From Candidatus Omnitrophica bacterium UBA6253 (GTDB lineage Bacteria > Omnitrophota > Gorgyraeia > Gygaellales > Profunditerraquicolaceae): a stretch of DNA of 64,000 bases. Under the pieces are notes generated by a model. That model was not told the DNA's origin, did no database searches, and saw nothing but the letters and a program-made list of their open reading frames with translations. The DNA lies in the NCBI GenBank assembly GCA_002441245.1, contig DJVP01000012.1, positions 325,504-389,503 of the forward strand, in the 5' to 3' direction. Shown here in pieces: positions 4,241 to 64,000 of the stretch. Each line of letters starts with the position of its first letter. Position 1 is the first letter of the stretch. The translations under genes and the position numbers were made by a program.

Positions 4241-4245
4241 TTTAG

Positions 4246-6419: not shown

Positions 6420-6484
6420 CCTTATACTCCTTCCGTTTATCGTGGGGGATTTACCCCTTGGGGATAGATTATAAAAAGACGTAA

Positions 6485-6519
6485 TGTTAAAATTTAACAT
6501 ATTTTAATGCTCTGGTCAA
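6485..6519 (-). promoter_or_regulatory. Candidate sigma70 promoter plus a palindromic operator upstream of the sugar ABC operon.
   Basis: On the minus strand: TTGACC (rc of 6514-6519), 17-nt spacer, then TAAATT (rc of 6491-6496). A perfect 8+8 palindrome ATGTTAAA.TTTAACAT at 6485-6500 overlaps the -10. Confidence 0.4.
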
Positions 6520-6538: not shown

Positions 6539-7231
6539 TCAGGATCTAAGGACACGGGAGATACCCATTAGATCCGCCTTCTCTAATTCTACTCCTAATT
6601 TATAGTTATTTACCCCTTCCGACTTTTCCCAAACCACCTTACCCCTGGTATACAAAGACTCCCCCTGATTTTTCATTTCCAGCCAAATCTCCAAAGCAGC
6701 AGGCAGCCTTAACTCCTCACTGGCTGACAAGCCTAACCCCTTGGCACTGACATCCTGGATCTTAGCTAAACCCTCCTCTCCTGTATCCGGATTCAAATAC
6801 CGGGCAGAGATGTTCACTGGAAATCTCTCAAAAATCCGATGATCGTTCATATTATCACCTCCTTTCTCAAGTTTCTTTTCATCCGGCCACCATTTTTCTT
6901 TTATCTCATTGTGGCAATATTTGTTTAGAAAATTATAGATCTTATCCTTATCAGCATCCCGGATTTTATCAAAATAAATACCGTAATGGTTTACCCCGTT
7001 AAAAACCTTGTGCCAAGCAATCCAGACTTCAGCATCTACAGTGCAATCTTCATAAAGCCGCAGATTTATTCTAAGTGCGGCATCTTCCGGAAGCTTGGTA
7101 TTTAAAACAATCCTCGCCCCCTTATAGCTAATGTCTTTAATCTGACAGGGCAACTCCCCGGGGAGCTGCTCCAGCTTAAGCCTGCCTTGCTGTTTTACCT
7201 GATATCTAACATATCTTCTATGTTCCTGCAT
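6539..7231 (-). CDS. Tandem PilZ-domain protein (putative c-di-GMP receptor).
   Basis: Two PilZ signatures are present. The first is RRYVRYQV...DISYKGARI. The second is RIFERFPV...DVSAKGLGL. These match the RxxxR and D/NxSxxG motifs. Confidence 0.65.
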   Translation of the reverse strand: MQEHRRYVRYQVKQQGRLKLEQLPGELPCQIKDISYKGARIVLNTKLPEDAALRINLRLYEDCTVDAEVWIAWHKVFNGVNHYGIYFDKIRDADKDKIYNFLNKYCHNEIKEKWWPDEKKLEKGGDNMNDHRIFERFPVNISARYLNPDTGEEGLAKIQDVSAKGLGLSASEELRLPAALEIWLEMKNQGESLYTRGKVVWEKSEGVNNYKLGVELEKADLMGISRVLRS

Positions 7232-7257
7232 TTATGCACCTCTCCGCCACTGTCCGG

Positions 7258-7587
7258 TTAATTCACTGGAAGATTATTCTTAACATGTTCGCTTATCCAG
7301 CTTATTGCCGATTCCTCAATCCTGTTAAAAGAAAGCCCATAGATATTCTTTTCATAGGCGTTATCATGCCAGGCTACGTGCGCCCCCATGTCAAATACTA
7401 AACCTTCAGTCAAGGCCAGCCTGAAACTTGAAAAGGCCTCATGAAAAAGGTCCCTGCTTAAAGAAATCTTCATTCCGGAAGTGCTTATATCTTCCACTGT
7501 ACAAGGAATAGAGCTAATGCCACCATCAAAAACCAACCCTGCCTCTTTATCAAGTTGCCACCGTGCTACCTGCCTACGCTCTTGCAT
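7258..7587 (-). CDS. PilZ-domain protein.
   Basis: 109 aa with RRQVARWQL...EDISTSGMKI. SD AAGGAGGGGA lies immediately upstream (rc of 7590-7600). Confidence 0.6.
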   Translation of the reverse strand: MQERRQVARWQLDKEAGLVFDGGISSIPCTVEDISTSGMKISLSRDLFHEAFSSFRLALTEGLVFDMGAHVAWHDNAYEKNIYGLSFNRIEESAISWISEHVKNNLPVN

Positions 7588-7679
7588 ATCCCCTCCTTAT
7601 CTAATTCACTTGATACCTAACATGCTGATATAAGGGAAGTTAACAATATTATCCCTTACTTTATTAAATTGTCCACTGA

Positions 7680-10160
7680 TTATTTTAAACCTGCTTCCCT
7701 CATTTTTACCATAGCCTTAACCAATACCTGCCTTACTTCTCCTTCTCCAATCTTAAGGCTTCCGGCAATATCTTTAACATCCATACCTGAAACTTCAACA
7801 GCTATTACTATATCTTTCTCCAAGCTGGTAAGCCTGCTAAATGCATCGGCAACTAAATGGTTTCCAAAACTTCCACCTTTTAAATCTATTATGTCTATAA
7901 GCTCATATTCACTCAAGGCAGTTCTATCCGGCAAAACATCCTTTAAGCTAAACCCCGCAGAATTCGATTCTTCATCAATAGACTTCTGCTTAAAAGAAAG
8001 TTTGTTATTTTCTTTTCTCATTTTAACAAAGAACCTATTCAGCTCCTTTCGTACATAATCTTCAAAATCCGTCCTGAGATTAGAATCAATGCCCGCATAT
8101 TCATCCAGGATATCATACATATATAATATGCCTTCTTGGATTAATTCTTCAATATACCCGTTTTGCGGATTAGCATAATGAGCGGCTACTTCCTTTACCA
8201 GCCAGATATAAGCCTCGATAAATATAGTCCTCGCTTCAAAATTACCACATTTTATTTCATCCAAAAGCCCCAATTGCCGACTTTGTTCAAGATGCGTTTT
8301 TTCATTATAATAATCTTTAATGGTAAAAGGCACTCTTTCGGGAAGCTTTTCTTTGGATATGGCGATCCTCTGCAAACAATATTCAATATAATCCTGTGCC
8401 AAAACAACAATTTCATTTAAGGGGTGAGCCAACCGTATAACCTTATTAAATTCTGCAAGTGCGCGCTTATATCTTTTTTTGGAAATATGTTCTTCCGCCC
8501 GGGCGAATCTGGATTCTATCTCTTTAGATTTTTTTATCTCGTCGTAATGCTTAAGATACGCATTGGTAGATTCCAGAATTTCTCCCGCTGCAGGATCGTC
8601 AATAAACTTGTCTTTAAGCCCTCTTGATACATTTTTGAATATTTTAACAGCTTCAATTAATTTATCTTTTGAAAATAAATCTATGCCCAGATCATAAAGT
8701 CCTTTTAAATTAAATAGCCTTTCCTGGCGTGCAGCTTCGATTTTCCAGGCATGCCTGTCAGCCTTAAAAATACTCCGGCAGTGATCAATATAAATCCTGG
8801 CTTCCCGGGCAAGGTTAATTTCTTCAACTATAGGCACTTTTCTTTTACTTTTAATATAGATTATTCTGGAAAATAATCTTTGCGCTTCTTTATATTTAGT
8901 TTGAGCAAACAACTCTTTGGCCTGGGCATAAAGCCTGCGCGGTTCCTCCATCCTGGAATCATTCCTTAGCCTGGACTTAATGAGCATTTCCCGGCGGATG
9001 CTTTTTCTTACATCAATCACTAAGGGTTCATTATCCAAATTAAATATATAGTTACCTTCTCTATCCTTAATGAACTTGAGAAAGGCCGGCTTGCCGGCAA
9101 TAAATTTTGCTTCTACCCTGGCCAGGGGATAAAGATAAAACCAGCCCCAGTAATTCATAAGATTAAATATGCCACGATTATCCAGGCCTATTTCCGAGGC
9201 TATATAATCTAAAACCTGATTGCCAGCACAATCTACCAGTTTATCGTTGCTCCATCTTTCAAAAACATTGAACATCTCGCCTTTAGCGAACGAATCTTCG
9301 GAGCTATCCTTGGCAGCTTTATACATTAAAGACAACCTTTTCGTAGTTAAAATTTTACCATCTTCAAAGACATCTGCCCCTACGATAAAGGCCTTTTTAC
9401 CTGAAGGATTACGGATATCAAAAATATTTACTCTCTTATAGCTATATTTAGGGCCAAAATCTATCCAGTTTTCCCTCCCGCCTATATTTAAAGAGCCGTC
9501 CTTACTTAAAGGATAATTGTGAATTTCGTATCTTTCATTCAACATATTAAATTCTTCTTCAAAACCTAATTCCACAAAAGACATTGTATAGAATTGCTTT
9601 TCTTTATTCCAAATAAGTGAGAATTCAACATCTAAATCTGAATCTAAAGAGGTAACTCTTCTGACCAATCCGTCTATAACCAAAATTTTTACTCTTTCGT
9701 TGGGATTCTTGTAAAACTTTGCCCAGCGTCTTTTATTTTTGGTCATACTGCCGTCAACAAACGGCCTTCCTCCGCCTATCCATAAACCGCCATCCTTATC
9801 CAGGCAGCCATAAACAGTGACATTTTTGAACTGCGCTAATTTATTGCGTTTTATCTTTTCTAAATACACATCTATTGTCTCCTGGGTAAAATTATCTATT
9901 ATCGGAAAAAATTCCTTGGAAGTGTTGTCTTTAGTCAATAAAATTCTCTGCGGGAAGCCACCCTTTATCTCCAGCAAATATCCGGATTTGTCATAAGCAG
10001 TAAACCTCCCCCAATACTTACCCAACATTAATCTTCCCCCGTTAGCCAATACCCCTCTTATAACCACATGGCCTAATTTCTTTAATTCCTCCAAACTAAT
10101 ATTATAAGGCAGATCACTTTTGTTAATAACCGTAAAAGATGAAAAATACGAAAGATGCTC
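7680..10160 (-). other. Module BA (~827 aa): C-terminal module. Beta-rich and helical/TPR-like region followed by a sigma-70-family (group 3/ECF-like) domain at ~7680-8250.
   Basis: Region 2: IFIEAYIWLVKEVAAHYANPQNGYIEELIQEGILYMYDILDEY. Region 4: LTSLEKDIVIAVEVSGMDVKDIAGSLKIGEGEVRQVLVKAMVKMRE. TAA stop at 7682-7680. Confidence 0.55.
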
Positions 10161-13100
10161 CACCGGCGAACTTCCGCTTTTCTTACTTTTAAACTTAATA
10201 ATTTCATAGCTATTATTTCCGGCACTCCTTAGCTCAACTTTTCCGGTTTTATTAACTTGGGCCATTAATACCCCTAATTCATCTTCACTAAGCATATCTT
10301 GCCTGCCTAAAATAACTCTAAAATAAAGTTCTAATTCATTGGCGTTGACCTTGCCCGAAGTTTGCTCTGCTCTTTTAAATAACCATTCGGTAACGCTTTT
10401 CATTTGTATCTTATTAAAACGTTTGCTTCCTAAAGATACCTCTACCGGAGAGCTAGATATATATATCGCTCTGTTTACAGCCAGTTCTTTTTCCATCATC
10501 TCCCAAATCCGGGGATAATACACCGCTTTTGTATATACCTCTGTAGTGAAATCCCCCAACACCCTTTTCAATAAACCGGATTTAATTGGAGGCGAAACTC
10601 GCTTAATTAATTTAATAGCCCCAATTCCGTTTAAATTTTTATTCGCCATAAGTCCGAGCAATAAACTTGTAAATGCACCGGCAGAAAAAGAGGTTGAGCC
10701 GTTTCCATCGATTGCAGCCATCGCAAAATCTCCCGGCAAGGAATCATCATGAAGTTCCTCTCCTGCCCATGATGACAAGGCTCCGACTGAAATCACGCCG
10801 GGGACACAAGAAGGAAATAGATCGTAAAAAATAGTTTCTTCATTTTTTCTGTTTCCGGCGGCGGCAATAAAAATAATATTTCTTTGAATCAAGCGCTCTA
10901 TCAACTTATAACAATCCAAATCCCGCAAAAGATCAAAATCTCCGGCAAAACTCATATTTATCACTAGTTTAGCTACCGGGTATCTATCCTGAAAATTTGC
11001 TATTTTTACCAAAGCCTCTTTAATCAATATCTTATTCATTGTTCTACCATCTAAATCGCCTACATTAACTGCCCATACATCACATATAGTACCCGGTTGC
11101 GTCCAGACGATTTTCAACACTATATCTCCGTGATACCCATAAAAATTATCAAGTACAAAACAAACAATCCGGCTTTTTGCCTCTGGAACAATTTTCTTTA
11201 TATCGTTTGGCTTAAATACAATATAACCACTCACCGGAGAACTGGAACGGCTTTTCGTAATTACCAACTTTAAACTGACAGTCGCGCCCAGCGATCCCCC
11301 GCTTACGTTTGAGATCATCCCGCGTTTGCCTAAAACTGGGCTCGATGACGAGGCTGCCGGCGAACTAAAATCACCGTCATTAATCAACCTAGAAGAACTA
11401 TCCCTTCCAAAAACAGGAGAGTTTCTCAAAAACATCAGCTCCCGCTGTAACCTCGCAGGCGAACTAGCCCTTAGCACTTCCACAGAGGAAGCGCCATTGC
11501 CTATTCTTATCGTTGCTTCTATCCACGCCCCCGGGAGATTATTATCATTTTTGATTGGTTGACTAAACAATGCTTCCCCGCCTTCGGCCTTCTCCAAAGT
11601 TTGAGTAATATTCCTGGTGTGTACCGTAACTTTACCGCCGTAATAACCTACAAAATCTTTCTTTACATAATAAAGCCCAACCCCTAAACTATTACCTCCG
11701 CTCAATTGTTCTTCAAAAGCTTTCTCTATGGGAATAGAAAATCCTTTTCCGGTATCGCACACACAAACATTATATTCTTCAGCTGTTTGCAATATTAAAA
11801 CCAGCATTTTAGTTTTAACGTGCTTGAAATTATGCAACAGGTGGACAAGGATTGATAAACGTATATCAATAACACCGAGCTTATCTGCTGTTTTACCCAT
11901 ATCTTCATTATTTTCTATTAATTCAGCCAATATTACGCCTTTCCCATTGCGTAAGTTTTCCAATGGATAAACACCTTCCAAAACCTGCATTATCAGATTA
12001 CGTTCAATCAGTGGAGAGGAAACCGGGGAGCTGACGCCCATCCCAGATAAAGGCTTTCCTGCCTGCAATTCCAGCATCCTTCTTGTTTCACCGTTGAGGC
12101 TTTTGACTCTTGCGTTTCTTATCTTTATGCCTGCAAAACCTTTAAACGCGTTCTCCAATGATTCAAAATCAAAAAATCGATATGGCATTCCATTAATATT
12201 AAACCGGTCTTTATGCAGGGGAAGTCCCTTGGCGTATTTATCATCGGCTTTTGAATAAACCATCGCAAAAATCTTTCCTCCCCGCTTAAGCACCCGCCAA
12301 GTTTCATCAACAATGCGCGTCATCTTCTCATCATCAAAAGAAATAAAGCTACAGTTAGCAAAAACCGTGTTAAATTCTTCATCCGGAAAGTTGAACGGCT
12401 CTGATAAATCCTGAATACTCGCAACAAGTCTATGCTGAATACCCTGTCTGGCCGCCTCTTGAGATATCCTGCTGATACAAACAGGAGAAATATCGGTAGC
12501 TGTAACAAAACACCCGATATCCCGGGCTAAGATAATCTCATCCTCTCTTCGTCCACAGCCTAAAGAAAGAACCCTATCTCCGTTTTTAAATAAGTTTTTA
12601 TTCAATAGCCGGCCCATAAATTCGCTCTGCGGCAGACTTATGGCCTGCCAAATCTGAGACCAATTATGTACTTGCTGACTCGCTGTAAGTATTCTGTTAT
12701 CCCTTAAGTAAATAGCCCTAGCAAATGCCTGACGTTCCTTTTGTAGTTTAACCGGCGAGCTGACAGTTGCAACAACAGGATACGGCTTAACCTTTTCCGC
12801 AATCAACCCCATCGCCCCGAGATAGCCTTTAGGGGCAAATATAAAATCATTGACTTGATACCCCCTTAACTCAAAAAGTTTTTTGACTCTCTGAAATTCT
12901 TCTTGATGAGGTGCTTCTATAGACATGCTCAAATACCCGGTATTAATAACTAAATCAAAAGCTCCATCTTCATTAATTATCTCTAATGAATCCCTATTAG
13001 CAGTACCATAATGCCTCCACGGCCCCATATTCAACAATCCGATTAAATTCCCGCTACCACGGAATTTCTGTAAAAAGTTGCTAATCAGCTCTTTTTGACT

Positions 13101-16100
13101 CAAATTTGCATTAAGAATATAAAAATCATCATCTTCTATCCACCCATGTTCTTCCAATATAACTCTTGCGAAACTTACGTTTCGGGAATTATTTTCTATT
13201 AAAATAACCCTGCGTGCCCCCAGGGAAAGTGCTATACAAGAAAGAACACTTGTCCCGGCCCCAAAGTCAACAACAATTGCGTTTTTAAACATTTCTTCTC
13301 TTGCCAGTATCGAGGCAATAGTGGAAACTGTAAAATCATTCAACGGCTGACCAGGCTGGGCTGACCAGGGAGAAATAAAGAAAATGAAATCGGAATGCTT
13401 GATATAAAGATCACCGAGCTTATCTTTATACTGTCTGGCCAATGCCCTCGCCTTCCGAGAAACCGACTCCTGAGACCACCCATAACTATCTGACAAAAGA
13501 ACAATAAATATCATCCGGCCTAACCTGTACATACTTCTGGTAAAATTTCTTTTAAAATTATAATCCTTATCGCCTATCTGTATTTTCCGGTTTCCTTCCA
13601 GGGGGAATCTTGAAAGAAGTTTTTCAATATCCCTGGACACTTGAGCCATCCTTTCCTCAGAAACTATCTCCATATCAGCAGGTACTGTTACCGCCCCAGG
13701 AAGGACAGTAGGAGTATGCGGTGAGATGGATAACCGGCTATGGATATCATCAATAGCCCTTTTAACCAACCGCTCATTTTCCTGCTTAATTCTTATTTCC
13801 AACTCCACGATATCATCCTTAGCTTTCTTTAATGCTGCGATTTTTATGTAAAGATCGCCGCTAAACTCTGGATGGAATCTATTCATTGGTTCCATAATAC
13901 GGTTAAAACTTCTTGCGATATCGCGGGCAACCCCCTTTGCAGACCTTACCACTGGTGAACTGGAGCACACTCCCGCTGCCGCTGCCTGACGCTCATAATC
14001 CGCTTCTTCTTGCGCCAAATTCCGAGTCAATTTGGGCCAAGAAAAACCGCCAACTTTATTAAGGTAAAATGAAACTGTCCGCTCCGGGAAATAACGCACG
14101 ACCGCCCCATGAAGAATGCTAACTTCGGAAAGACCCGCCCTAGTAATGAATAAAATATGCATTTGTTTGGCGAAACAATACAAACTAAAACCTTTACCCA
14201 AAAGTTTTCTTCCGTCGCTCGATAATCCGCCAAAATCCCTGTTCCAATCTTCATACTGGCAGCCAACTCCCAGGGCCAATTTGATATGCGCGCTACTCTG
14301 TTTCGGCACCGCCACATGAAAAATACAACGATCATTATGATAAAAACAGTGCCAATCGTGCCAATCGCTGTTAAAATGCCTCCTCCACTCGATCCCGTGA
14401 CCGACTTGCCCCGGAGATGCCGCGTTTAGCTCAATCCCGGTGACGGCTCCGGAGCCAAAATAAAACAGGAGTTTTTCAAAAGAAGTCAAGGGCTTGGCCA
14501 GATGTTCAAAATCTTTCAGCCGCGCCAGATCGTCTTTGCCAACGTTTCCCAAAATACGCTGCGCTCCATCGAACGCCTTAGACAAACCCAAGGTAGCCCT
14601 ATCAACTACCGTCTTGCGGAAAACCAACAAATGTGCCAGATCGATCTCTGGCGATGTGCGGCCCCTAAACTCAACATCTTCCGAGAGCCTTTTTCCAAAA
14701 ATTTCCTGGAATAAGTTGAGACGCTGAAATAAACCCACCGGAGCCCGTTCTTTAAATTCAGAAACGAACGCCCTTTGATCAAAGACAGGATACAAACTCC
14801 ACATTTTATGAATAGGGCTGGAACAAAGACCATAACGCGCTATAAATTCATCCTTCTTAATCTGCTGTTCAAAAAGATACTCTTCTATACTCCAGGCTGT
14901 TACGCCATCGTCAAAAACATCCCACCGCATATCCCTATGCCCTAAAGTCCTGATTTTGGCCAAGGTTGACTCGTTCCTTAATTCAGGATCATTCTGCAGT
15001 AATCTCTTAATTCCAAAAACCCTTAATTCATGGCCAAGGCCTACAAAACGGCGGGCTTCTAATTCAGGCAGCCTATTCCAAGGTGATATCTCCATGACTG
15101 CATAGCGGATATTCTGATATAAACTCGAGAAACCAACATCCAAATCAACCCAACCTTCTATTTCTAGTTTTTCATTATCAAAAGACAGGGCTAAATATAG
15201 TTGGCCTAAGCCTTCTGACTGCCACTCAAGAAAATCCCTGTAAGCTATTACATCCGAAATATGCTCTGTCTCAGGCTTTCCGTCAAACGATATCCATCTA
15301 TTAAAACTATTTGCCGCAGATAATTTCATAGCAGCATTTAATGATTTTGCCATTACCACCGGTAATTCCACCATAACCTTTCCGGCATGATTATGGCCAA
15401 GGACCACTACCTTGCCTTCCAAACCAATACCGCCATAAATCTGCGATTGAATGGTTTCTTTTACCGGTGAACTGGAACGCAGCTTAAGCGGTAAAGATGA
15501 ATAAGCTGGCTCAACATTTTTATAATAGCGCGCTAGCGTCGCCAGGGTAATATCGTCTTTTTCATTCCTGGCTTTCTTTTCCATATCTTCTAATATTTCT
15601 CCTCTGGTTTTCAAAATACCTCTTGAAACCAAACTCTCTATTCTTTTCTCCATTTCAGCGATTAATTCATCAATGGTTAAATAACCTCTTATCAACCCAT
15701 TCCGCCTGGCGGCCTGCAAAAGAGGAAGAAAATCAGTATTTTCCGAAACCTCGATATCAAGCTTTAATGCCAGACAGGATTTTTTAACTAAACCCCATAA
15801 AGAACTATAAGATGACCTACCCTGTATATCCATAATCTCGGCAAGGCTCTTACCGCAAGCCAATAACCTCAATATCTGCAGCTTGGCTAAACCAAATTTC
15901 TCCTGCTGTACCTTAGCCTGCAAAACAGATAAATCAAGTTCTTTAGGAATCTGGCCCATGCCCTGTAATGATTTTATTAAAACCAGGGATGTAGCGAATG
16001 GCTTTTTATGGCTCCCATTTTTTAACGTTATATTAATATTTTGTTTTCCTGCTCTTTTCTTGATATATGCCGGGCCGCATAAAACATCGCTCCTTGCTAT

Positions 16101-19100
16101 GCCAAGTTCATGATTAATTTCTTCAAAAGAAAGCCCTTTGGCTCTTAGCTTTAACGCGTTTATCTGCACATTTGAAAGGAATATTACCGCATTACGCGCA
16201 GAAGCGAACAACTTCATTTCTACCGCCCGCTTCAGGATTTTCTCAACAACTGCCGGGCCAAAACCCTTATCATCAATGCCAAACTTCCTTTTAATCCCGC
16301 GGATATGCCTCTTATTTGCATCCACCTTCACATATCTACTGCTTGCAATATCCCTGGATCTTACCTTTCCTTCCCGCATGAAGGCTAAAATATCTTTCTC
16401 CGCATCAGTTAACGGATTAACCAAAATATCAGGATAGATCTGCCTTGTTTTTTCTATTAATTGCGGCCAGGACTTCCTAATTTTACGTTCCAAACCAAAA
16501 GCATCAAGTATGGAATAAACGATTATTCTTACCGTTCCCTGATGGCTTAAATTTAAGGCACTGCCTATCACTTTATAAGGCTCCCGTTGGCACAAAAGTT
16601 TCAAGGTGACCAATTGACGCTGGTTAAATAACGGTTCAGCAACATATGCGCCCACCGGCGAGCTACTTGTAAATTCCCGGTTGATTTCAAGATATGCTTC
16701 CGGTTTCAAAGGAGTGAAATAAACAGGCCCGTAATAATCGTCTCCCCTAGTCCACCAGACTCCTTTTAACCCAGGTCCATAGGCATTGGAGTATTCTGGG
16801 CGGTTTCCTGCCTGGAGTACGGCCCTTACCAACTCTTGCGCAGGAATTTCAACATAACGCTCCAACCACCTTGGCCAATCATACTCAGAATCAGGAGGCT
16901 CTTGATGAACCAAATCTTTGATCCGAGACGTTTCATCTATTGAAGGAATATCTTTTGCATGTAATGAAGCGCAATAACCTGAACCTAAAAGTGAATTAAG
17001 TATAGTTCCCGGAAAACTATCATTAAACTCTGGCACATTGGGATACCCTTTCAATAGTTCATCTTGCGCCAAGAATGCCACTCGTACAGCTTCATCAACA
17101 AGGTTGTAATATCTGTCTCCACCATCTCTTCCTAGGGAAGACAAACTATTTGTTCTATCAGGGCCGTATGTTTTAGGAAGACCGATAATATCGCAATTCA
17201 ACCAGCCCTGCCAAACAATAGCATCGAAATCATAACCCCTGCTTCTTTCCTGGGGCTGCATTAAGTCTTCGAAGAATATTTTAATCATTCCTGCCAATTT
17301 ACGGCTCTGGAGATTGGTAAAACGGACTGAATGACCCAAGCGTAAGGCCTCTAACCGCAGAAATTCAAGCACACTCAAACCTATTCCTTTATATTCACCC
17401 TTCCCTCTGCTGTTAAGGGTATATATCACGGGTATGCTTATCTCTTTATATTCTGGATCTATTACTATATTCACGCGGTTACCTCTATGGAACTGGCCAT
17501 TAAAACCTATAGAATATAATAAATCAATTTTCTCTTCCCCTTTAGGCTCTCCATCTAAAACTAATTCAATGCCTATATTGTGATCCAATATATTCCTAAA
17601 TGATATTTTGCTTTCTCCTAAAGCGCCGGCCACATTAATATCAACCGGCGAACTACTCTTTTTTTCAATTGTTCCTGGATCTAATGCCGCAGCGGCTTTT
17701 TTGATAGATAGAAATACATCCAGCATGTAAAAATTACTCTCATATAAAACTTTCATGTCTATAGGATACGCAACCGCCTTGCTTATTCCCGGAAACGGAA
17801 AAATATGTACGCGCATGTTGTCAAACCAGCTTCTCTGCTGGTCTTTAACTGTGTAATTATCGCTATCGATAATCTTTACATCTAAATCGGTTTCTGATGT
17901 TATCGGCCACGGCTCACAAGACATGAATCTTTTAAGAATACCTCCATAGATATAGCAAGGAGGCAATAAACGGCCTTTCTGCTCATACAAACCTTTAACC
18001 TCTCTCAATACTATTTTCAGGTTAGTATTTAACAACCAGAGGGATTGCAAGAATTCATCAGATATACCGCCAGGCACCCTTGCACGATACTCTATCATTA
18101 TTTCTTGCGGGATAACTGGATCCTGAGGTACAGAGCTGTCTGGTAATGGGCTTGAGACAGATAACGGCAAGGCGGCAATAGCCATCTCCTTAAAGGTATC
18201 GTTACTTAAAAATGCGGGGTGCGCTACAGGCGAACTGGAAAGGTGCAATTTTATGCCTTCCTTGCGGTAGACTCCCACAAGGCGATTAACAACAGGCTGA
18301 AGAACTATAAATTCCCCTTTGCCATTCTTGTCAAAAGTAACGTTCCCCGGATTTTGCTCAAATTCCCTGGAAAGAAAACTGTGCCCGCTCTTAGTAATAA
18401 AAACACCCTCTCCGCTACCCATAGCCTCCTTGAATGTACGAACAGGTTTTTCTTCCAGCAGGTCTCGATAAACCAGGTAATATAGCCCCCAAAGCCCTTG
18501 CTTAAATAACTCAAACCAGCAAGGAGACAGGTCTTTCTTTATGGCTGGGAATTTCCCGCAGATTCTCGGCTTATCCCTGTCTTGGTATATTTTGCAGGAA
18601 GAAACGAATGTAAGGCCGGTGCTATTTGAGAAATCCAGGATTATCTGCAGCGCCCAACAGGGAAACCCTGAAACAAGATTAGATTGACCTATAATCGAAT
18701 AGCGCTGTTTAGGCTTGAGGTCGCCGATTGCAAAATACTCTCTTGTATATGGGCAATCTTTGCCATATTTTCTTCTAAGCACCTTTTTGATTTCTTCCGG
18801 AATCCATTCATCCCTAAAAAAACAACAGGCGGCGTCAACACATAAAAATCTCCTTCCCGGCATACTTCGAAACATCACCGGAATATCCTTTCCTGCCGGC
18901 GAACTGCTATACAGGCGCAACCTGATTACCGTTCCCTTATTATATTCACTATCAATCTCAAGTTCGCTTTCAATACCAAAAACATCCTCTATGCTGTTTA
19001 GATTACGTATACCTACTCCGGGGCTGCCTTTTTTGACAAAATCACCAGCGAGTATGGCTTCCACATCATCCATGCCGCTTCCATGGTCTATAGAAGTTAC

Positions 19101-55100: not shown

Positions 55101-58100
55101 ATTACCAATGAACAGTGTATCGACATCTTGCATATATCTAAAAGTATTCAGGGCTTCTTCCGGATTCTCTACTAATGGTTCATGCTTGTTAAAAGAAGTA
55201 TTGACCACTGCCGGAACCCCAGTCAATTCCCCTACCTTATCCAAAAGTTTCAAATAAAGGGTGTTATGTTTTCCGTCTACAGTCTGGGGCCTCGCTAGTC
55301 TTTTCCCATATTGATGAACTCCGGAAGCCAACATATGTTTCTTATCCGCAAGGACGTCAAAAGCAACGACCATAAAGGGAGATTTGTAAATTCCCTTAAA
55401 ATATTCTTTCGCGACAGACTCAGAAATACTACAGGCAGACGGCCTCCATAACTGCCTTCCCTTTAGAATATTGGCGGTATTATTGGCGGTGTCGTCCAGA
55501 AGGTTTAATAAAATGCTTCTTGCGCCTAGCGCCCGCGGGCCTAACTCGCTTTTCCCCTGAAACCAGGCAACCGGCTCATTTTCTACTATCAAACGAGAAG
55601 CTTCATCTATTATTTTTTGATCGTTTGCCGCGATATAATCAATTCCCTGTTGAAGCCCAAACCGATCCAGAACTTTTCGAATTTCTTCATCACTGTATTC
55701 AGGTCCATAAAAAGCATGCTCCATTTCAAAGAAAACATCTTGCCCATATACCTCTTTAGCAACCACCAAAGCCGCGCCGATCGCTGTTCCGGCGTCGCTT
55801 GCTACCGGCTGAACAAAAATATCTTCGCCATCCACTAATCCATCGGAAATGATCTTCCCATTCGCTAATATATTCAAAGAAATCCCGCCGGATAAAGACA
55901 CCTTTTTAATATCTCTTGTCTTACGGGCTTCTCGAAGATGATACCTTACAATATCTGTTACAATGCTATCTGTCGTTTCCTGAAGCACAAAAGCCAAATT
56001 GGCGAAAGACCTGTCTTCAATCAAAAGAGGATCAATTTCTTTGCTATTTTTTGTACATAAAGGAACTAATGCCTGGAGCTTCTTTACCAGCGCGTTGGTA
56101 ACGCGAATCTTTCCAGGCGCAATACCTCCATAATAAAGATATTCGGGATTAGCGACCAATTTTCCACTAGTAGAATCAAAATATATATAATCATTGAAGA
56201 TTTTCCTTAGATTTTTTACCCGGTGTCTTTCCGTATCGTCCCGTGGTTCTCCATATGGAGCTAAGCCCATGATCTCGCCTTCTGCAAAAGTAGGCCGGAA
56301 GCCAAGATATTCTGTCATTGCAGCCCAAACCCATCCTAATGAATTAGGCAAGGTATAATTTCCGATTCCTTCCATTTCTCCATTATCACCGATCCAAATC
56401 GTCCCTGAATCAACATCTCCATAGCCATCCAGACAAACAACCAAAACAGGGTCTTTGAAACCACTGAGGTAATATGCCGAAGCAGCATGCGCAAGATGAT
56501 GACTGATAAACGAAATTAAGGGAGTGTATCTAGTATTATAGTATTTTCGCATTTCAGCCAAAAACTCTTCCAGATTACCGATGCTAAATCGCGCTTTATT
56601 CTTCTCGGGAACATTTCTGCGAATAATCCCTTTAATAGTAATATTTTTTTTTGCGGCAAACTCTTCATCCATTTTCCGAAAAAATTCATCCGAGGGGGCA
56701 GGAGAATGCGGAGTATCAACGTAAAGATTATAATTCCAGCCAATGGCAATATGAGCTATATCTTCTAACGATATATTCTCATCTTTAAGAAGCTTATGAA
56801 TTGCCAGAATAGGAAACTTTGAAGCATCGTGCTTAGTCCTAGACATACGTTCTTCTTCTAAAGCCGCTACAATCTTTCCGTCTTTCAGCAGGACTGCGGT
56901 AGAATCATGCCAAGAACCAGATATCCCCAGGATATATTGACCTTTTCTATTGGCGCCGAAATCACCTTGGTATAATTTTATCGTTATCCCGTCGTAGAAG
57001 ATCCGATCTTTAAGGCCGGCATACTCAACGGGAAAAATGTCATTTTTGTGGAAACGGACAAGTCTATCAGCAAAATACAAATCAATAACACGGTCTTTAT
57101 TAATAGTTACCCTCTGGACGCCGGAGATCTGACTAAGCAAGATAATCATTTCTTTATCGGTAAAGACGTTAAAGCCGTTACAAAAATCCATAAAGTTATT
57201 CAAATCATACTGATCTATCATGATCCCATTATCTGCGAGCGTCCTGAAAATAATATCCTGCTCTCTGGTGATCCGTGAAAAAAGCTCTTCCATTTTATTC
57301 AACCCTTCTTCAAGGGTCCTATTCTTCTTTAAAAACCAGGTCCTAGCGACAAAGGAATCAACGCCTTTACGCAAAATTCTATGCAGGCTTTCTTCGTTGA
57401 TCCCACCGTCGATTTCAATCGGAACATTGTGGATACATCGTTCACGGAAGAATTTCCTCAACATGGCTATTTTTTCCAAAGTTGAAGGAATAAACGGACG
57501 ACTGCAGGCGCCCGGGACTATCGCCATCAGCATAATAGATTCTATTTCCCTACCGATCATCTCCGATATATTCTCAAGCGCGGATAAAGGAGTTTCAGGA
57601 TTAAGCACTAAACCAAATTTTAAATCTAATCCTACGGTCTTTCTAATAATATCCTTCAGTTTCTCAATTTCATTAAATGATTCAAAATGAATGAGTATTT
57701 TATCCCTTTTGCTTTTTAGTCCGGCATCAGACATTCTTTTTACAAGAGAGAAATCCGGTGCTACGGACATCAGGTGGACTATTAAAGGCAACTTTGTGAA
57801 AGAAAGCTCCCGAATCTGCTTACTGCAATCAAATGCCTCAGAATCAGGAGTAAATACGCCGTCAAGATAATCGATATGTATCCCATTCATCCCCGCGGCT
57901 TCCACTCTCCTTACCTCTGATACAACTTCCTCATCCAAAGCTGATAAGATCGAAAAGTAAACATTTAGCGATTTTATTGAGGTAATAGCGGAAGACGACC
58001 CTACCGGAGCGTACCATCTGATTATCTTTGAGGGGTGGTTAGAAGTGTTGGTAAGGGTGAATTCTTTAAGATAAGCCGGGATTATGGCGCAGTCATTGGT

Positions 58101-61100
58101 AGAGAGAGTTTCAGGAGAATAGTTAGGAGCATTGATCTGGACTGAGCCTTCTAAGATGAATATAGGATAGCCGTGGTCATTAGCTTGCTGGCTTATTCGG
58201 GTGTTAAGAGTAATCTCATCTACGATTACTTCAGTGGTGGTAAAGAGATTATCAATATGATTACCTTGATTATCATTAAACAGGTTTGCTCTCTGGCTGT
58301 AAACTTTAGCTAAGTTTATTTTATCATAAGCAGGAATATTGGCTCTGATTAAAGCATCATTTAAAACCTCCAGAGCTCCAACTATATCTTCTTTGCCTGG
58401 CCTGGGTGATTTACCATCAGTCCTGTCCCAAAGAGCAACTGTAGCTCGTTTTAAATCACCTTTCTTGATTTCTTCACCTGTTGGAGCATGAGACCATTCC
58501 CAGATGGTTGTGCCAAACCGAATAGCATGGATTAAACCACCTCCAACTAAGATCAAATCGTTTTCTTTAGCATTTAATTGATACAGTAGGTTTTCTAAGC
58601 TTCCTTCATTGTAGGCTCGCAAAAGGATTTCAGCAGTTATATTTTGATTTAGGCCCAGATATAACTTTGCTCCGCCTGGACCAACCATCCACATCTCAGG
58701 CTTAGCAGGCCTGGAAGAATGACCTATAGCCGGATGAACCTGAACCCCCAAGGATAAACCGGCATCAATTAACTTCATGATAGTAGCCATGGATCTGCCG
58801 TATCTTCTGATATGTTCACCACCTAAGATACGTTCCCCTTCTTGCTCTAAGAGCTGGATGAGGTTAAGATTAGAATCAACTACCTTTGAAGGATAGGTTT
58901 GATCATCTGAGGCAAGCCATAATTCACCTACAGGCTCATTCTCAGGATTAGCTTTATTTACATCAGCTATATCTCCAGCTGGCAGGTCCTTGTAAGTCAA
59001 TCCTAAAAGCTTTAAGATATTTGATTCCTTGGCAGGCCTGCCCCAGGTGTAAGTATGCTTACCGGTGCGGATGTTGGCGCTATAGATACGAACTATAGCG
59101 CTGAGAGGGGAGGAAGAAACATAAATCCTCTCTACGTCTTGTTGGGTTAAACCAACTTCGGCCAACTTACGATAAAGTTCTTCATTGGCAATTAAAATGT
59201 GCCCGGTCATTTCTAAGCTGGCAAATTTAAGCTTATGGCTACCATTTAAATTGATTTTTGCGTATTCATCTTGACGTGGAAATAAAATAGCCCTCGGATT
59301 ATTTTTTCTTAAGTTAAATGACAAATTATAAGGCATGTTCTTAAGCGATAAATTATTAATGTCTATTAATGTTGCTTCACTCAAATTTTCTATATCTTTT
59401 TCTTTAAACATAAACGCCGGAGCCGGCCAACCCATAATCAATCCTTCTTTCGTGGGATCATAAGCATCGATGTATTTCCAGATATTGGTCTGTTTCTTAA
59501 AGATCTGGAAATGTAAGTGGTGTACGGAATGGCCTGCGCCAGGGCTATTAAAAGTGGCTTCGTAATCTTCACCCATTGCCTTTAAAACTAACAAAGTATC
59601 TTCTACTCTTTTAGCATCCAATGATTGTTTCCGATGCTCTTTGCTAACCAAATTTAGGTGAAATGGAACATAGGGGAATTTATTGGCTATTAATTTATAT
59701 TCTCTCCCTTCTATTTCAATCTCGGCTAAAACCTGTTTATCCAGAATATTGCAAAAAGGACAAAGCGAATTATTATCATTCTGTTGATTAACGTATCCTT
59801 CCCTTAAATTAAATAAAACTACTTCTATTTCAGCTCCGGAGCCAAGCGTTACTTTCTGGGAAAAAGTATCAATAAATTTGTAAGCAAAAATGTCTCTATC
59901 GCTACAAGATAATTCCTGGAAACGCTTTTCAATAATCTCTTTAATTACTCCTGATTTTACATTGTTGTTTATATTTAGCTTCAGAATTGCTTTAATTGGC
60001 GAAGAAACACTGGGTTTTTCAGTTTTGTTCTTTCTCTGAATTTTTTGATTTACCAGATAAATAGTCCCATAAGCTTGGGCAAATCTGCGTAAATTATCAT
60101 CTGGAACTATTTCTTCAGGAAAAATAATCTGGGGTATTAGAGCTCTAAGATGAGGGAAATCTCTTTCTATAGTTTCTTTTAAGCTCTCATAGTAAACTTT
60201 ACCAGCTAAACAATTAAAATCTTTATTCTGAGCCTTATCTTTAACTTTAACCTTAGTGATTCTACCAGTGAGAAGCAATTCGTCTGGAAAGTCCGGCCCA
60301 AAATCATAATATATATCATTTAAAAAAATAGCCAAATGCTTACCTAAGTGCCGGAATATTTCTACCGCGTCTTCATTATAATCTTCTCTTTCAGGAGACG
60401 TCATAAGCTGTAATTCCTCTAATCTTTCTGCCTTCTCTTTTGCTTTTAATTCTATATTTTTCTCTTTAGCCAATCTAAAAGCTGCCTCCTGAGCTAAATG
60501 TTTCTGGGCCGCATCTAATATACCGGTGTTTTTGTTTTCAGTGCCAGCTTCCTTGTCATCTGTCAAGATCACATTGCTTGCCCTCAAAAACATCGGGGTT
60601 AATTCGCCATTCATATCCACATAACCAGCGCCAGGAGAAGTTCCAACTGCAATACCTAAAATATTGCCTCTTTCTTTTTCTACGGCAGCCCAGAAAGCAG
60701 TAATATTACCATCGTTAGCAATAGCCACTTCGGTTTTAAATTCTTTTCCTATTTCTTGAGCTAATAAACCTAACTTATCAAATTCATTCCAATATTCTTC
60801 TTTAGACCACTCTTCCCGATTCCAACGCTTCTTTCTATCCTCTTTAGCTTGTTCAATCCCTTCTCTCGTTCCTGTAATTCCCAGGCTTGCGGTTTTACCG
60901 GTATCTCCACCAACAATTAAGCCATTATAATTTTCATCATTAATTATCATATCCGGCCAGCTTATTCCAATACCTACTATCTTCTCATTATTTCCTACAG
61001 CCTTCAATACTTCCGGTATTACAATTTTATTAATGAAATCAATATAGTCGCTAGCCCGAGTAAAATCTTCCGGCTTCCAGCCCTCTTTTTCACCAAACTC

Positions 61101-64000: not shown

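Follow-up and report, generated by a model that had tools for sequence, protein, structure and literature searches.

What is encoded by a frame that stays open over more than 56 kb, and what is the role of the Ser-Ser-Pro (S-S-P or SSP) peptide that recurs between its modules? These questions are raised by a stretch of 64,000 nucleotides, hereafter the window, most of which is covered by a single minus-strand ORF.

Extent, authenticity and class of the giant ORF

The original prediction started from a minus-strand frame free of stops up to the window edge, and the codon count bears it out: 7683..63998 holds 18,772 codons with zero stops and is open at the edge, while the second-longest stop-free run within the window is 795 codons.

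7683..63998, minus strand: giant ORF; stop codon TAA at 7680-7682, 5' end outside the window

A gene call of 19,001 aa in another assembly (ENA contig k141_11307) places about 229 more codons past the window edge; of this gene of about 57 kb and 19,001 codons, the window covers the 3' 56.3 kb. Could such a frame be an artefact? It might have come from chimeric assembly, from proteins joined in silico through an artificial linker, or from separate genes that lost their stops by sequencing error or by a reassigned code. We consider the probability of this negligible. Nothing speaks in its favour save an old JGI assembly (L004), in which the gene is broken, but at an ambiguous base. Against it, the locus was found in at least six independent assemblies (NCBI, ENA, JGI, Logan; the Logan contig carries 16,794 aa), its common part is 100% identical in four of them (L002, L003, L005, L006), and this identical sequence came from independent short-read assemblies of different samples. 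The chimerism or concatenation that the original prediction had wanted to see excluded is thereby ruled out, and the same ORF does exist elsewhere, as these assemblies and an orthologous fragment with 75% identity (P0001) attest. The same architecture and junction motif also occur in the complete genome of the cultured Candidatus Velamenicoccus archaeovorus, which was re-confirmed with PacBio reads (PMC12583861), and the junction codons vary naturally. Since TAA, TAG and TGA are all absent across the 18,772 codons, code reassignment is not required. We regard the ORF as almost certainly an authentic giant gene of a nanobacterium of the Omnitrophota. Signs of this origin, in a window that holds no marker gene, are the name of the P0001 fragment (Ca. 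Omnitrophica), three modules (S8, GNAT-like and LuxR array) orthologous to Ca. V. archaeovorus LiM, and the typical locus context.

Giants described as 'multi-enzyme metabolic clusters' in Omnitrophota have the same Pfam repertoire (Nielsen & Lui 2026, bioRxiv 10.64898/2026.06.07.730766), and our ORF belongs to this class (their class 1). Its architecture is therefore known, and the earlier claim that the enzyme-by-enzyme arrangement is unprecedented has to be dropped. Like the members of this class, which include the 39,678-aa ORF of Ca. V. archaeovorus LiM, it exceeds 10,000 codons in one ORF, and the methyltransferase, HATPase_c, GNAT, HAD, HD, starch-synthase-like, radical SAM and ROK domains are found along it without any of them being dominant. 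Its downstream genes are also those of Omnitrophota giants (pilZ genes, sugar import, glycoside hydrolases); the pilZ and sugar-import context was noted before (West-Roberts et al. 2023, bioRxiv 10.1101/2023.11.21.568195).

6539..7587, minus strand: two PilZ-domain genes (7258-7587 and 6539-7231), directly downstream of the giant ORF
5121-6500, 4246-5124 and 3392-4240, minus strand: sugar ABC transporter (substrate-binding protein, then two permeases)
1119-3392, minus strand: 757-aa glycoside hydrolase, within the sugar-import and glycosidase block 1119..6500

We found no terminator between the giant ORF and the PilZ genes, and the downstream glycosidase genes are GH2/GH5-like. The class also has type II/IV secretion or pilus genes upstream, a flank that lies beyond the window here. 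In the published catalogue, 94% of giants have transmembrane (TM) helices or a signal peptide, and the V. archaeovorus giant is reported with 42, whereas a Kyte-Doolittle scan of our 18,772 aa, which start about 229 aa after the N-terminus of the protein, gave a single convincing TM segment (aa 11204-11226).

Module content of the chain

The chain can be described as about 45 SSP-bounded units with a median of 243 aa (43 of them of at least 90 aa), plus eight short spacers. Pfam recognises about 26 domains from about 24 distinct families that tile the ORF, none of them dominant: the most frequent (GerE, methyltransferase, HAD, ROK, HATPase_c) reach 2-4 copies each. These figures do not confirm the more than 55 complete enzymes initially announced, but Pfam and PDB matches support the description of the chain as enzymes and regulators that normally stand alone. 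The enzymes identified in this way are Rpe, a TobZ-like carbamoyltransferase, ROK kinases, beta-phosphoglucomutase (HAD), Rel/SpoT, GT5-like, GH77, GDE_C, P-loop kinase, YvcK/CofD, methyltransferase, B12-type radical SAM and GNAT modules; the regulators are GerE/LuxR HTH arrays, sigma-70 region 4 and a pair of HATPase_c modules.

57321..57971, minus strand: ribulose-phosphate 3-epimerase (aa 2010-2226; Pfam; PDB 2fli residues 3-205 of 220)
55083..56912, minus strand: TobZ/NovN-like O-carbamoyltransferase (aa 2363-2972; Pfam; PDB match E = 1.9e-61)
52908..54563, minus strand: ROK kinase (aa 3146-3458), then beta-phosphoglucomutase (aa 3478-3697; Pfam, PDB)
49107..49931, minus strand: Rel/SpoT-like hydrolase and synthetase (aa 4690-4964; Pfam HD_4; PDB 1vj7 residues 45-296)
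41892..47549, minus strand: glycogen-metabolism block with GT5-like (aa 5484-5595), GH77 amylomaltase-like (aa 6468-6728) and GDE_C (aa 7006-7369) modules (Pfam, PDB)
40392..41831, minus strand: P-loop kinase (aa 7390-7649, GFMGVGKT) and second HAD module (aa 7669-7869; Pfam)
37266..37835, minus strand: GNAT-like module 'A2', copy 2 (aa 8722-8911); the alignment of this internal paralogue begins exactly at S-S-P
36039..37265, minus strand: LuxR/GerE HTH array, copy 1 (aa 8912-9320; 62% identity to copy 2, 59% to the module in relative L007)
30249..30746, minus strand: 166-aa S-S-P-bounded module with the TM segment (aa 11204-11226; 30321-30389 in the window)
28245..29324, minus strand: YvcK/CofD-family module (aa 11559-11918; Pfam E = 6e-46; PDB 2q7x, 2hzb)
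25950..27047, minus strand: tandem 183-aa paralogous modules (aa 12318-12500 and 12501-12683), each spanning S-S-P to S-S-P
22518..24344, minus strand: SAM methyltransferase (aa 13219-13344) and OxsB-like B12 radical SAM enzyme (aa 13499-13827, CPGNCTFC; Pfam, PDB)
18906..20501, minus strand: GNAT (aa 14500-14603), an unassigned module and HATPase_c module 1 (aa 14816-15031; Pfam)
17139..17654, minus strand: GNAT-like module 'A2', copy 1 (aa 15449-15620; 54-57% identity to Velamenicoccus-clade giants)
15474..16664, minus strand: LuxR/GerE HTH array, copy 2 (aa 15779-16175), paralogue of copy 1
11466..12623, minus strand: methyltransferase module 2 (aa 17126-17287) and HATPase_c module 2 (aa 17327-17511; Pfam, PDB)
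7683..8321, minus strand: C-terminal sigma-70-like module (region 2-like and region 4), preceded by TPR (Pfam Sigma70_r4, r4_2)

Several modules align nearly end to end with free-standing enzymes of the PDB (beta-phosphoglucomutase over residues 2-222 of 227, Rpe over 3-205 of 220, TobZ over 26-570, YvcK from residue 7). In a Foldseek search, an AF2 model of A2 copy 1 matched GNAT acetyltransferases for the most part, at weak scores (E ~1e-2). The two tandem 183-aa modules share 35% identity (E = 9e-30), in an alignment offset by 1 from the SSP sites.

Several complete enzymes per polypeptide are also found in the fungal AROM pentafunctional enzyme and in type I PKS/NRPS. These are uncleaved fusions that carry out the successive reactions of a single pathway with the help of carrier or docking domains; no set peptide recurs in their linkers, and they contain no embedded protease. 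In contrast, the modules here are heterogeneous, ranging from sugar metabolism and nucleotide signalling to methyl- and acetyltransferases, sigma factors and HTH arrays. We rejected a megasynthase of either type on this heterogeneity and on the absence of all PP-binding and KS/AT/C/A Pfam families.

The S-S-P junction and module turnover

According to the original prediction, nearly every module boundary carries S-S-S-P-[V/I]. The reiterated junction is real, but its core is S-S-P: the exact pentapeptide occurs 21 times, and one long stretch lacks SSP altogether. A tripeptide scan gave 52 S-S-P sites for 3.3-3.5 expected (shuffles 3.5 +/- 2.0), which makes it the most enriched tripeptide of the ORF (z = 27); SSSP occurs 29 times for 0.2 expected.

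10164..63563, minus strand: 52 S-S-P sites of 9 nt each, whose high coordinates are 63563, 61664, 60005, 59114, 51491, 50309, 49958, 48479, 48335, 48284, 44753, 44660, 41831, 41051, 40223, 37835, 37265, 36038, 33929, 31481, 30746, 30248, 29351, 28145, 27716, 27047, 26498, 25949, 24491, 23819, 22019, 21734, 20585, 20060, 19553, 18905, 18236, 18155, 17654, 16664, 15473, 14822, 13961, 12761, 12032, 12020, 11465, 11366, 11345, 11243, 10454 and 10172
57984-57998, minus strand: variant junction SSSA-I, preceding the ribulose-phosphate 3-epimerase module
53589-53603 and 52893-52907, minus strand: variant junctions SSSS-I and SSSS-L around beta-phosphoglucomutase

The consensus can be written [S>V,A]-S-S-P-[V>I,L,A,M]. 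Five positions only are informative, and the surroundings do not have a linker-like composition. None of the 52 sites falls within a Pfam envelope (P ~4e-6), and SSP is absent from the neighbouring ordinary proteins (3,371 aa). The sites precede by 0-23 residues the point at which residue 1 of the free-standing PDB homologues aligns (directly in the YvcK/CofD module), and module ends coincide with the C-termini of PDB homologues. S-S-P-[V/I/L/A] stands where an operon would have a stop codon, an intergenic spacer and a start codon. The SSP-free stretch, aa 1629-4169 (2,541 aa), contains at least five enzymes (PMI, Rpe, TobZ, ROK, beta-phosphoglucomutase); three of its boundaries have the variants listed above and the others are bare, so that some boundaries are unmarked or carry SSS[A/S] variants only, a point against processing at S-S-P.

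The junction is equally enriched in Ca. V. archaeovorus and other relatives of 51-55% GC. Six related giant fragments, sampled through one shared module and covering two lineages (they include Ca. V. archaeovorus LiM, and two of the six are identical to each other), contain 13-18 SSP each for about one expected. In the orthologue alignment, SSP columns are 89-95% identical and flanks 55-75%, and the Velamenicoccus clade uses the form [L/F/I/V]-S-S-P-A. The junction serines are encoded by both TCN and AGY codons. S-S-P is under selection at the peptide level, and the reiterated boundary peptide of the original prediction is confirmed in this form.

The median distance between the end of a homology block and an SSP is 2 aa, and 75% of the ends lie within 12 aa; random positions give 71 aa and 9.5%. 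Internal paralogues begin at SSP, and the orthologous fragment P0001 is devoid of HATPase_c module 1, a clean absence from S-S-P to S-S-P. S-S-P marks the units of module gain, loss and duplication. Is it then a scar or facilitator of recombination? The junctions would in this case be of common descent or homogenised at the DNA level around a consensus C-AGY-TCG-CCG-G, the peptide being a tolerated by-product, and in-frame microhomology would drive the insertion, deletion and shuffling of modules. The coincidence of S-S-P with the breakpoints of gain, loss and replacement is in line with this, as are the sense-strand sequences AGTTCGCC and TCGCCGG, which occur eight times each and always in the junction frame, and a junction-specific codon bias would be compatible. 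However, most junctions differ synonymously and mix TCN and AGY, which have no common bases at positions 1-2, so that a site-specific mechanism would have to work with DNA identity that is neither high nor constant enough. The amino acid columns are kept across GC-diverse lineages while codons drift, and a search for DNA repeats, including tandem ones, detected none. We hold this explanation to be improbable.

The codon bias itself invites another reading, in which S-S-P, preferably as AGY-TCG-CCG, is a programmed slow spot in translation made of a rare serine codon and a proline. Proline is a poor substrate of peptidyl transfer, and a pause between modules would allow the preceding module to fold or to engage chaperones during a translation lasting more than 20 minutes. 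TCG is the rarest serine codon of the ORF (8%), yet it occupies 20 of the 52 second-serine positions (P = 6e-10) and only 4 of 47 at Ser-Pro pairs outside junctions; CCG is favoured as well. The same bias is found in relatives L007 (P = 2e-4) and L011 (P = 6e-4), and S-S-P is placed exactly at module boundaries. On the other side, L009 and L010 show little or no TCG enrichment. TCG is not used at 60% of the sites, and all Ser and Pro codons occur, which indicates that the primary constraint is on the peptide. The ribosomal exit tunnel holds the last 30-40 residues of the chain, which a pause at the boundary would leave inside, a poor placement for folding the preceding module. S-S-P is not known to be a strong stalling motif. 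Our estimate for such a translational role is low. The junction-specific bias nevertheless points to an additional or alternative role at the nucleotide or translation level, and as such counts against proteolytic processing.

An embedded subtilase and the proposed processing of the chain

Near the C-terminal end, the chain includes a compact protease module.

10455..11243, minus strand: subtilase module (Peptidase S8; aa 17586-17848; Pfam E = 2.9e-4, 20.7 bits)
11148-11150, 11130-11132, 10851-10853 and 10689-10691, minus strand: its catalytic codons for Asp, His, oxyanion Asn and Ser, respectively
11235-11243 and 10446-10454, minus strand: S-S-P flanking the module on both sides
11235..11468, minus strand: cluster of four S-S-P within 75 aa (aa 17512, 17545, 17552 and 17586), directly upstream of the module

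The 20.7 bits are below the Pfam PF00082 gathering cutoff of 21.8; however, the sequence relatives of the module are all Pfam S8 (35-91 bits), and D32 (VLDNF), H38 (YHGD), N131 (AAAGN) and S185 (GSTSF) are invariant in their alignment (A3), in the order Asp, His, Ser. Its AF2 model has a pTM of 0.70, and all 50 top Foldseek matches are subtilases. Giant-borne orthologues form one SSP-bounded unit in every related fragment. Their Asp, His and Ser are invariant; at the oxyanion position the Velamenicoccus clade has Asp or His instead of Asn, which speaks against processing by this subtilase. With 43-47% identity across lineages, these copies are a much tighter group of their own than their relatives, the compact membrane-anchored subtilases of PVC-group bacteria (NLE28742.1 from Phycisphaerae; P0003-P0025), which are 27-40% identical to the module. 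Both have the S8 fold, the Asp-x5-His spacing and the NxSF, AAAGN and GTSF motifs, but the PVC-group enzymes are free-standing, mostly of 250-680 aa, with hydrophobic N- and C-terminal segments, whereas the giant contains the catalytic domain alone, at an internal position. The subtilase may also be a mere cargo module, for instance for degrading prey proteins.

Proteolytic cleavage of giant proteins was already proposed (West-Roberts et al. 2023). In the accessible giant-gene literature, which includes West-Roberts et al. 2023 and Nielsen & Lui 2026, we found no mention of S-S-P punctuation or of a universal S-S-P-flanked compact subtilase. The conserved boundary motif and the motif-flanked protease bring new circumstantial support to a polyprotein model. 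The best-supported mechanism, which we favour tentatively from the sequences compared here, is that S-S-P may be a signal for endoproteolytic processing. In the simplest form, the embedded subtilase would cut at S-S-P, first in cis, then in trans. The residue that precedes S-S-P varies with lineage (Ser, Val or Ala here; Leu, Phe or Ile in relatives), which is awkward for a single conserved P1 preference.

Alternatively, the product may be an uncleaved megaprotein with its modules arranged like beads on a string, possibly tethered by a TM segment, and S-S-P may be read by something other than a protease. It could be recognised by a prolyl isomerase of the parvulin type or a chaperone, by a proline-directed Ser kinase or by an O-glycosyltransferase; the peptide could also be a plain short insulator between domains. 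Ser-Pro is the classic substrate of parvulins and proline-directed kinases, the motif is missing at some module boundaries, and the low-confidence residues beside the junction (pLDDT <50 in both AF2 models) would be expected of a flexible linker no less than of a cleavage site. Near giant genes, a conserved gene for a Rotamase_2 peptidyl-prolyl isomerase is reported (West-Roberts et al. 2023), Nielsen & Lui take giants as single membrane-anchored proteins, and the V. archaeovorus giant, whose peptides were detected, was treated as one protein in earlier work. However, the linkers of known uncleaved multidomain proteins do not keep one strict sequence of 3-5 residues across lineages of 41-55% GC, and it is hard to see why sigma factors and HTH regulators would be tethered in a chain of about 2 MDa. 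The lone TM helix has ATP-, SAM- and acetyl-CoA-dependent modules on both sides, and between such cytoplasmic enzymes it would impose an impossible topology on a single chain, unless it is not inserted. The conserved protease module bracketed by the motif is also left without explanation. We see a single uncleaved chain as possible, though rather unlikely.

Are there precedents for proteolytic processing of this kind? In picornaviruses (3C), nidoviruses (3CLpro) and flaviviruses (NS3), polyproteins have an embedded protease. As here, many units share one ORF, boundary motifs are informative at 3-5 positions, short spacers separate some of the sites, and the protease lies within the chain with its own sites on either side. 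The differences are a cellular organism, an ORF 3-8 times longer than the largest viral ones, a cargo of metabolic enzymes and transcription regulators, a protease of the subtilase type, and a cleavage that is here predicted.

Among bacterial proteins, MARTX and the clostridial glucosylating toxins (PMC2900308, PMC6315884) likewise array unrelated effector or enzyme modules in a large protein, with an internal protease domain beside its own processing site (here, S8 bracketed by S-S-P), short processing motifs in unstructured inter-module segments and module sets reshuffled by recombination. The MARTX cysteine protease domain cuts small-Leu-small motifs in unstructured segments between effectors (PMC2900308). 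As an analogue of these motifs we note the [L/F/I/V]-S-S-P-A of the Velamenicoccus clade. However, MARTX toxins have 3,500-5,300 aa or so and a handful of effectors at most, against about 45 modules here; their protease is an InsP6-activated C80 cysteine protease and not a subtilase, and their processing is demonstrated where ours is putative. We rejected a MARTX identity: no Pfam scan of the ORF matched Peptidase_C80, and it has no RTX/HemolysinCabind Pfam matches or glycine-rich repeats.

With S-S-P between its modules and its own conserved subtilisin-like protease, the giant ORF may encode a polyprotein of bacterial origin whose cut sites can be predicted. A single translation start would then give rise to dozens of proteins in fixed stoichiometry, among them enzymes, sigma factors, HTH regulators and a lone small membrane protein, and these products would act in the cytoplasm of the producer or else be delivered to prey.

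Reality and content of the giant reading frame

Six-frame translation bore out the original prediction of a minus-strand frame without stops: it comprises 18,772 codons, and its 5' part extends past the window at high coordinates, where about 229 further N-terminal codons lie. The second-longest stop-free run in the window has 795 codons, and the window has 41% G+C and a uniformly negative GC skew, so that a chance origin is excluded. The DNA of the window holds no tandem repeats, and neither an Rfam family at gathering thresholds in the window nor an RNA element in the ORF was found.

Features of the window (residue numbers are those of the minus-strand giant ORF)
7683..63998, minus strand: giant ORF, with stop codon TAA at 7680-7682
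51492-59105, minus strand: SSP-free stretch, about aa 1629-4169
30321-30389, minus strand: transmembrane segment, aa 11204-11226
25950-27047, minus strand: tandem pair of 183-aa paralogous modules
18906-19553, minus strand: 216-aa HATPase_c module
17646-17654, 12753-12761 and 11235-11243, minus strand: three of the 52 S-S-P junctions
10455-11243, minus strand: S8 (subtilase) module, aa 17586-17848
7675-7648, minus strand: promoter-like site
7588-7682: interval between the giant-ORF stop and the first PilZ gene

Is the frame an artefact of assembly or concatenation? The downstream PilZ protein also occurs on contigs of an NCBI MAG (GCA_028712745.1), an ENA assembly, two JGI metagenomes and two Logan assemblies, and four of these assemblies equal the window base for base across the shared 12-20 kb. 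The giant gene is called at 19,001 aa on the 290-kb ENA contig (ERZ27315056 k141_11307), and one Logan contig carries 16,794 aa of it. The giant ORF is not an assembly product, and the probability left to an artefact is negligible. The same locus in JGI 3300001592 has the ORF cut into two genes at ~5,740-5,770, at an N and a few inserted bases (TCANTGTG); we rejected this split as a real gene boundary, the ambiguous base being an assembly artefact. The interval before the first PilZ gene lacks a terminator-like structure, and the promoter-like site overlaps the giant-ORF stop region; the PilZ genes may share a transcript with the giant ORF, or be transcribed from a promoter of their own.

The ORF had been described as a chain of normally free-standing proteins, and Pfam scans and PDB sequence searches confirmed this.

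Modules recognized in the giant ORF by Pfam or PDB matches
PRK-like kinase; DUF4922; type-I PMI
Ribulose-phosphate 3-epimerase (Rpe), matching residues 3-205 of 220 of its PDB homologue
TobZ-like carbamoyltransferase (E = 2e-61; TobZ-family residues 26-570)
ROK kinases; beta-phosphoglucomutase (beta-PGM), homologue residues 2-222 of 227
Rel/SpoT hydrolase and synthetase
GT5-like domain; GH77; GDE_C
P-loop kinase; second HAD
Three sigma-70-like regions; several GerE/LuxR HTH arrays
YvcK/CofD
SAM methyltransferases, two to three
OxsB-like B12 radical-SAM enzyme (CPGNCTFC)
GNATs; two HATPase_c modules
TPR; C-terminal sigma-70 module

Solved homologues of the beta-PGM, Rpe and TobZ-family modules are covered nearly end to end. 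About 60% of the ORF length has no Pfam assignment, and the tandem 183-aa modules, 35% identical to one another, are without annotation from Pfam, PDB or elsewhere. A hydropathy scan of the 18,772 aa revealed a single convincing transmembrane segment, inside its own S-S-P-bounded module of 166 aa and with cofactor-dependent enzymes of cytoplasmic type on either side. Published Omnitrophota giants are reported to be far richer in transmembrane helices.

The S-S-P junction

The original prediction placed the pentapeptide S-S-S-P-[V/I] at almost every module boundary. Such a reiterated motif is real, but its informative core is the tripeptide S-S-P, and it is absent from the boundaries of aa 1629-4169. 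S-S-P occurs at 52 sites, against 3.5 +/- 2.0 in shuffled sequences, and SSSP occurs 29 times where 0.2 are expected. In an unbiased k-mer scan, SSP was the most enriched tripeptide (z = 27), with SSPV and SSSP the top tetrapeptides. Information at the junctions is confined to five positions, [S>V,A]-S-S-P-[V>I,L,A,M], and the flanks of the 52 sites show no linker-like composition. None of these sites lies inside a Pfam envelope, although 21% of the ORF is covered by envelopes and some 11 sites should by chance fall within them (P about 4e-6), and SSP does not appear in 3,371 aa of neighbouring ordinary proteins.

Junctions also lie close to where homologous proteins begin. In PDB alignments, the distance from S-S-P or a variant to the position aligned with homologue residue 1 ranges from 0 to 23 residues: 0 for YvcK/CofD, 3 for Rpe, 7 for beta-PGM, about 8 for GH77 and 23 for a methyltransferase. 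Module ends match the C-termini of free-standing homologues in these alignments, so that the motif takes the place of the stop codon, spacer and start codon of an operon. The spacing from SSP to SSP has a median of 243 aa (interquartile range 167-401), with eight additional short spacers of 4-48 aa. The SSP-free stretch spans 2,541 aa and at least five enzymes (PMI, Rpe, TobZ-like, ROK and beta-PGM); at three of its boundaries stand the variants SSSA-I, SSSS-I and SSSS-L, and no motif is recognizable between Rpe and TobZ or between TobZ and ROK. This stretch may represent a single product with several enzymes, or a part of the chain that is older and has decayed.

Relatives were reached by DNA scans with one conserved module (a two-sequence core alignment), which yielded six giant-ORF fragments of 3,800-4,600 aa each, mostly reaching the edge of their locus. 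One comes from the complete genome of the cultured Ca. Velamenicoccus archaeovorus LiM (NZ_CP019384.1, our locus L009), an organism with a giant ORF of 39,678 aa; the others, of which two are identical, are MAG or metagenome contigs of 51-55% G+C. SSP is found 13-18 times in each fragment, where about one is expected, and is again the top tripeptide; in this clade the motif takes the form [L/F/I/V]-S-S-P-[A>S,V]. When orthologous giants are compared, identity is 89-95% in the three motif columns and 55-75% in flanking columns. Homology blocks end at a median of 2 aa from an SSP, 75% of them within 12 aa, against 71 aa and 9.5% for random positions (the pairs are non-independent, and the effect is very large). 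Paralogous modules in the window ORF, the tandem 183-aa units included, start exactly at an SSP. An orthologue fragment from an Omnitrophica MAG (P0001, 75% identical) keeps the junctions and lacks the 216-aa HATPase_c module cleanly from SSP to SSP. The S-S-P-bounded modules are therefore units of evolution, and the ORF is shown to be a chain of protein-equivalent modules parted by a peptide signal under purifying selection.

One other junction of P0001 is altered, from SSSPV to RSLPV. In the L009 ORF, an identical spacer peptide of ~23 aa occurs twice, ~1,400 aa apart (aa 2860-2885 and 4259-4284), each copy starting from S-S-P, and the internal copy has the next S-S-P directly behind it; it may be an inter-module spacer that has been conserved, or a remnant of a segmental duplication. 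The apparent start MKEGSSPV of a draft fragment (P0002) was rejected as a natural gene boundary, as the complete V. archaeovorus genome shows it to be internal and the draft is frameshifted.

A protein search with a four-module query of 1,139 aa returned two fragments only, its own protein missing, and the S8 module had no matches in a word-index protein search. The 19,001-aa self protein and the V. archaeovorus giant came up in neither search, though public assemblies contain both. It appears that the two libraries either lack proteins of this length or do not let a search reach them, which makes the absence of giant-ORF matches there uninformative.

Does the junction act at the level of DNA, translation or peptide? 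Its serines are encoded by TCN and AGY alike and all proline and valine codons are used, pointing to a constraint on the peptide and not to a DNA repeat; this variation and the lack of tandem repeats led us to reject a DNA-repeat or cassette-site origin. Internal translation starts after the junction seem unlikely, since the GC-rich clade has Ala at the +3 residue and no SD-like sequence is present. The codons are nevertheless biased: the second serine is TCG in 20 of 52 sites, TCG being the rarest serine codon of the ORF (8%; P = 6e-10), and the proline codon CCG is favoured. A general Ser-Pro codon-pair effect is rejected by the non-junction Ser-Pro pairs, which are unbiased (TCG in 4 of 47), and the TCG enrichment recurs in two relatives, L007 and L011. 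This bias would suit a translational punctuation in which S-S-P serves as a pause signal, a reading that we consider improbable. AGTTCGCC and TCGCCGG each occur eight times on the sense strand, every time in the junction frame; that DNA-level microhomology promotes in-frame module shuffling is likewise a faint prospect.

An embedded subtilase module

The S8 module scores just below the Pfam threshold for the subtilase family PF00082 (E = 2.9e-4; 20.7 vs 21.8 bits), and its PDB sequence matches are weak and nearly all subtilases. An exhaustive HMMER search of representative proteins returned 23 distant free-standing S8 relatives and no giants; all ten relatives tested were clear Pfam S8 proteins. 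An alignment of 13 sequences defines a compact subfamily with Asp-x5-His spacing, in which Asp32, His38, Asn131 (AAAGN) and Thr184-Ser185 (GTSF) are invariant, the window module included. The AlphaFold2 model of the module (pTM 0.70) has a confident core, with the 22 residues behind the junction at pLDDT below 50, and its best 50 Foldseek matches in the PDB are all subtilases.

With a subfamily HMM, all related giant fragments proved to contain the S8 module (E = 1e-31 to 1e-38), in each case as a single unit of 254-263 aa running from S-S-P to S-S-P. The copies share 43-47% identity with that of the window, and their Asp, His and Ser motifs are invariant; the oxyanion-hole Asn is replaced by Asp or His (SAGD/SAGH) in the Velamenicoccus clade (L007-L011; for instance, aa 1467-1721 of the L009 ORF). 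Besides S8, only two module types are common to the window ORF and the related fragments, a LuxR HTH array and a module for which a structure model built from a three-sequence alignment weakly supports a GNAT-like fold. Four S-S-P sites lie within 75 aa just upstream of the window S8 module; HATPase_c module 2, this spacer cluster, S8 and a 94-aa module together occupy window 10173-12020, and Ser185 is encoded at 10689-10691. The embedded subtilase is co-inherited, itself flanked by S-S-P and apparently functional. Viral contigs scanned with an alignment of the giant-borne S8 modules gave nothing. The L009 ORF also has an M48-type metalloprotease module (aa 3729-4025, HELGH; Pfam PF01435 on P0002) with S-S-P on both sides, so that giants can carry more than one protease type.

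Polyprotein or single chain

Giant Omnitrophota ORFs have been on record since 2022-2023 and reach 147,000 codons. The architecture had been claimed as unprecedented, which did not hold: a multi-enzyme class with an identical Pfam repertoire was described in June 2026 (bioRxiv 10.64898/2026.06.07.730766), and the downstream context of pilZ, sugar-import and GH genes is already published (bioRxiv 10.1101/2023.11.21.568195). The window gene therefore belongs to a known kind of gene, and the original interpretation holds in part; published catalogues list 5,761 proteins of at least 10 kAA. Published work asks whether the giants act as one chain or are cut; the 2023 preprint proposed cleavage by C39 or S8 domains, with the cleavage points given as unknown (bioRxiv 10.1101/2023.11.21.568195). 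According to the published work, structure prediction on separate units of the giants is held back because no cleavage points are known. The 2026 preprint uses none of the terms cleavage, motif, junction, linker and polyprotein (bioRxiv 10.64898/2026.06.07.730766), and nothing relevant came from full-text searches that paired Omnitroph* with polyprotein or with cleavage site. Neither S-S-P punctuation nor a motif-flanked, universal compact subtilase was found in the accessible literature, which excludes Kizina et al. 2022. The punctuation and its protease thus appear to be an undescribed, phylogenetically conserved and directly testable feature, the novelty of the motif being provisional.

What might S-S-P be for? 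That it is a proteolytic processing site, and the ORF a polyprotein, is a nearly even prospect on the sequence evidence. The giant ORF would be translated from one start and cut at S-S-P, releasing separate enzymes, sigma factors and regulators, and the embedded subtilase, bracketed by its own motif, would be the cutting enzyme. We favour this reading because the motif resembles protease recognition sites, in information content and strictness, and not the linkers of uncleaved multidomain proteins, and because a protease bracketed by its own motif is also found in viral polyproteins and MARTX toxins; in the latter, small-Leu-small sequences in unstructured stretches between effectors are cut by an internal protease (PMC2900308). 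Moreover, it is difficult to see how sigma factors and HTH regulators could work as tethered parts of a ~2 MDa chain, and a single transmembrane helix with ATP-, SAM- and acetyl-CoA-dependent modules on both sides allows no consistent single-chain topology. Alternatively, the chain may stay uncleaved, with S-S-P recognized by a prolyl isomerase or chaperone, by a kinase or by a glycosyltransferase. We hold this alternative to be rather unlikely; in its favour is a Rotamase_2 gene reported as conserved near giant genes (bioRxiv 10.1101/2023.11.21.568195). Processing and its rivals could in part coexist, codon bias in particular being compatible with cleavage.

The broader proposal, that Omnitrophota giant ORFs are true cellular polyproteins in which a dedicated compact subtilase, embedded in the chain and inherited together with it, would cut at a universal S-S-P and release dozens of products, is put forward tentatively, at somewhat below even. 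The cytoplasmic-type modules so released might possibly be effectors delivered into prey cells, candidates being the glycogen-mobilising enzymes, Rel/SpoT, kinases, acetyl- and methyltransferases, and sigma and LuxR regulators.

S-S-P provides a sequence-only rule for splitting giant ORFs into protein-sized, evolutionarily independent modules, useful for annotation and structure prediction. It also gives an exact, falsifiable prediction of cleavage sites, turning whether and where giants are cut into an answerable question; since the cultured V. archaeovorus has the same motif and embedded subtilase, this can be checked in existing proteomes of that organism (PRIDE PXD025008). Should processing be refuted, a strict three-residue inter-module signal and its codon bias would still need explaining, by chaperone docking, modification or translational pausing. 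To our knowledge, polyproteins as a gene-expression strategy have so far been confined to viruses and, at far smaller scale, autoprocessing toxins. If processing is true, the giants would be the first polyprotein-based expression system of such scale in a cellular organism.
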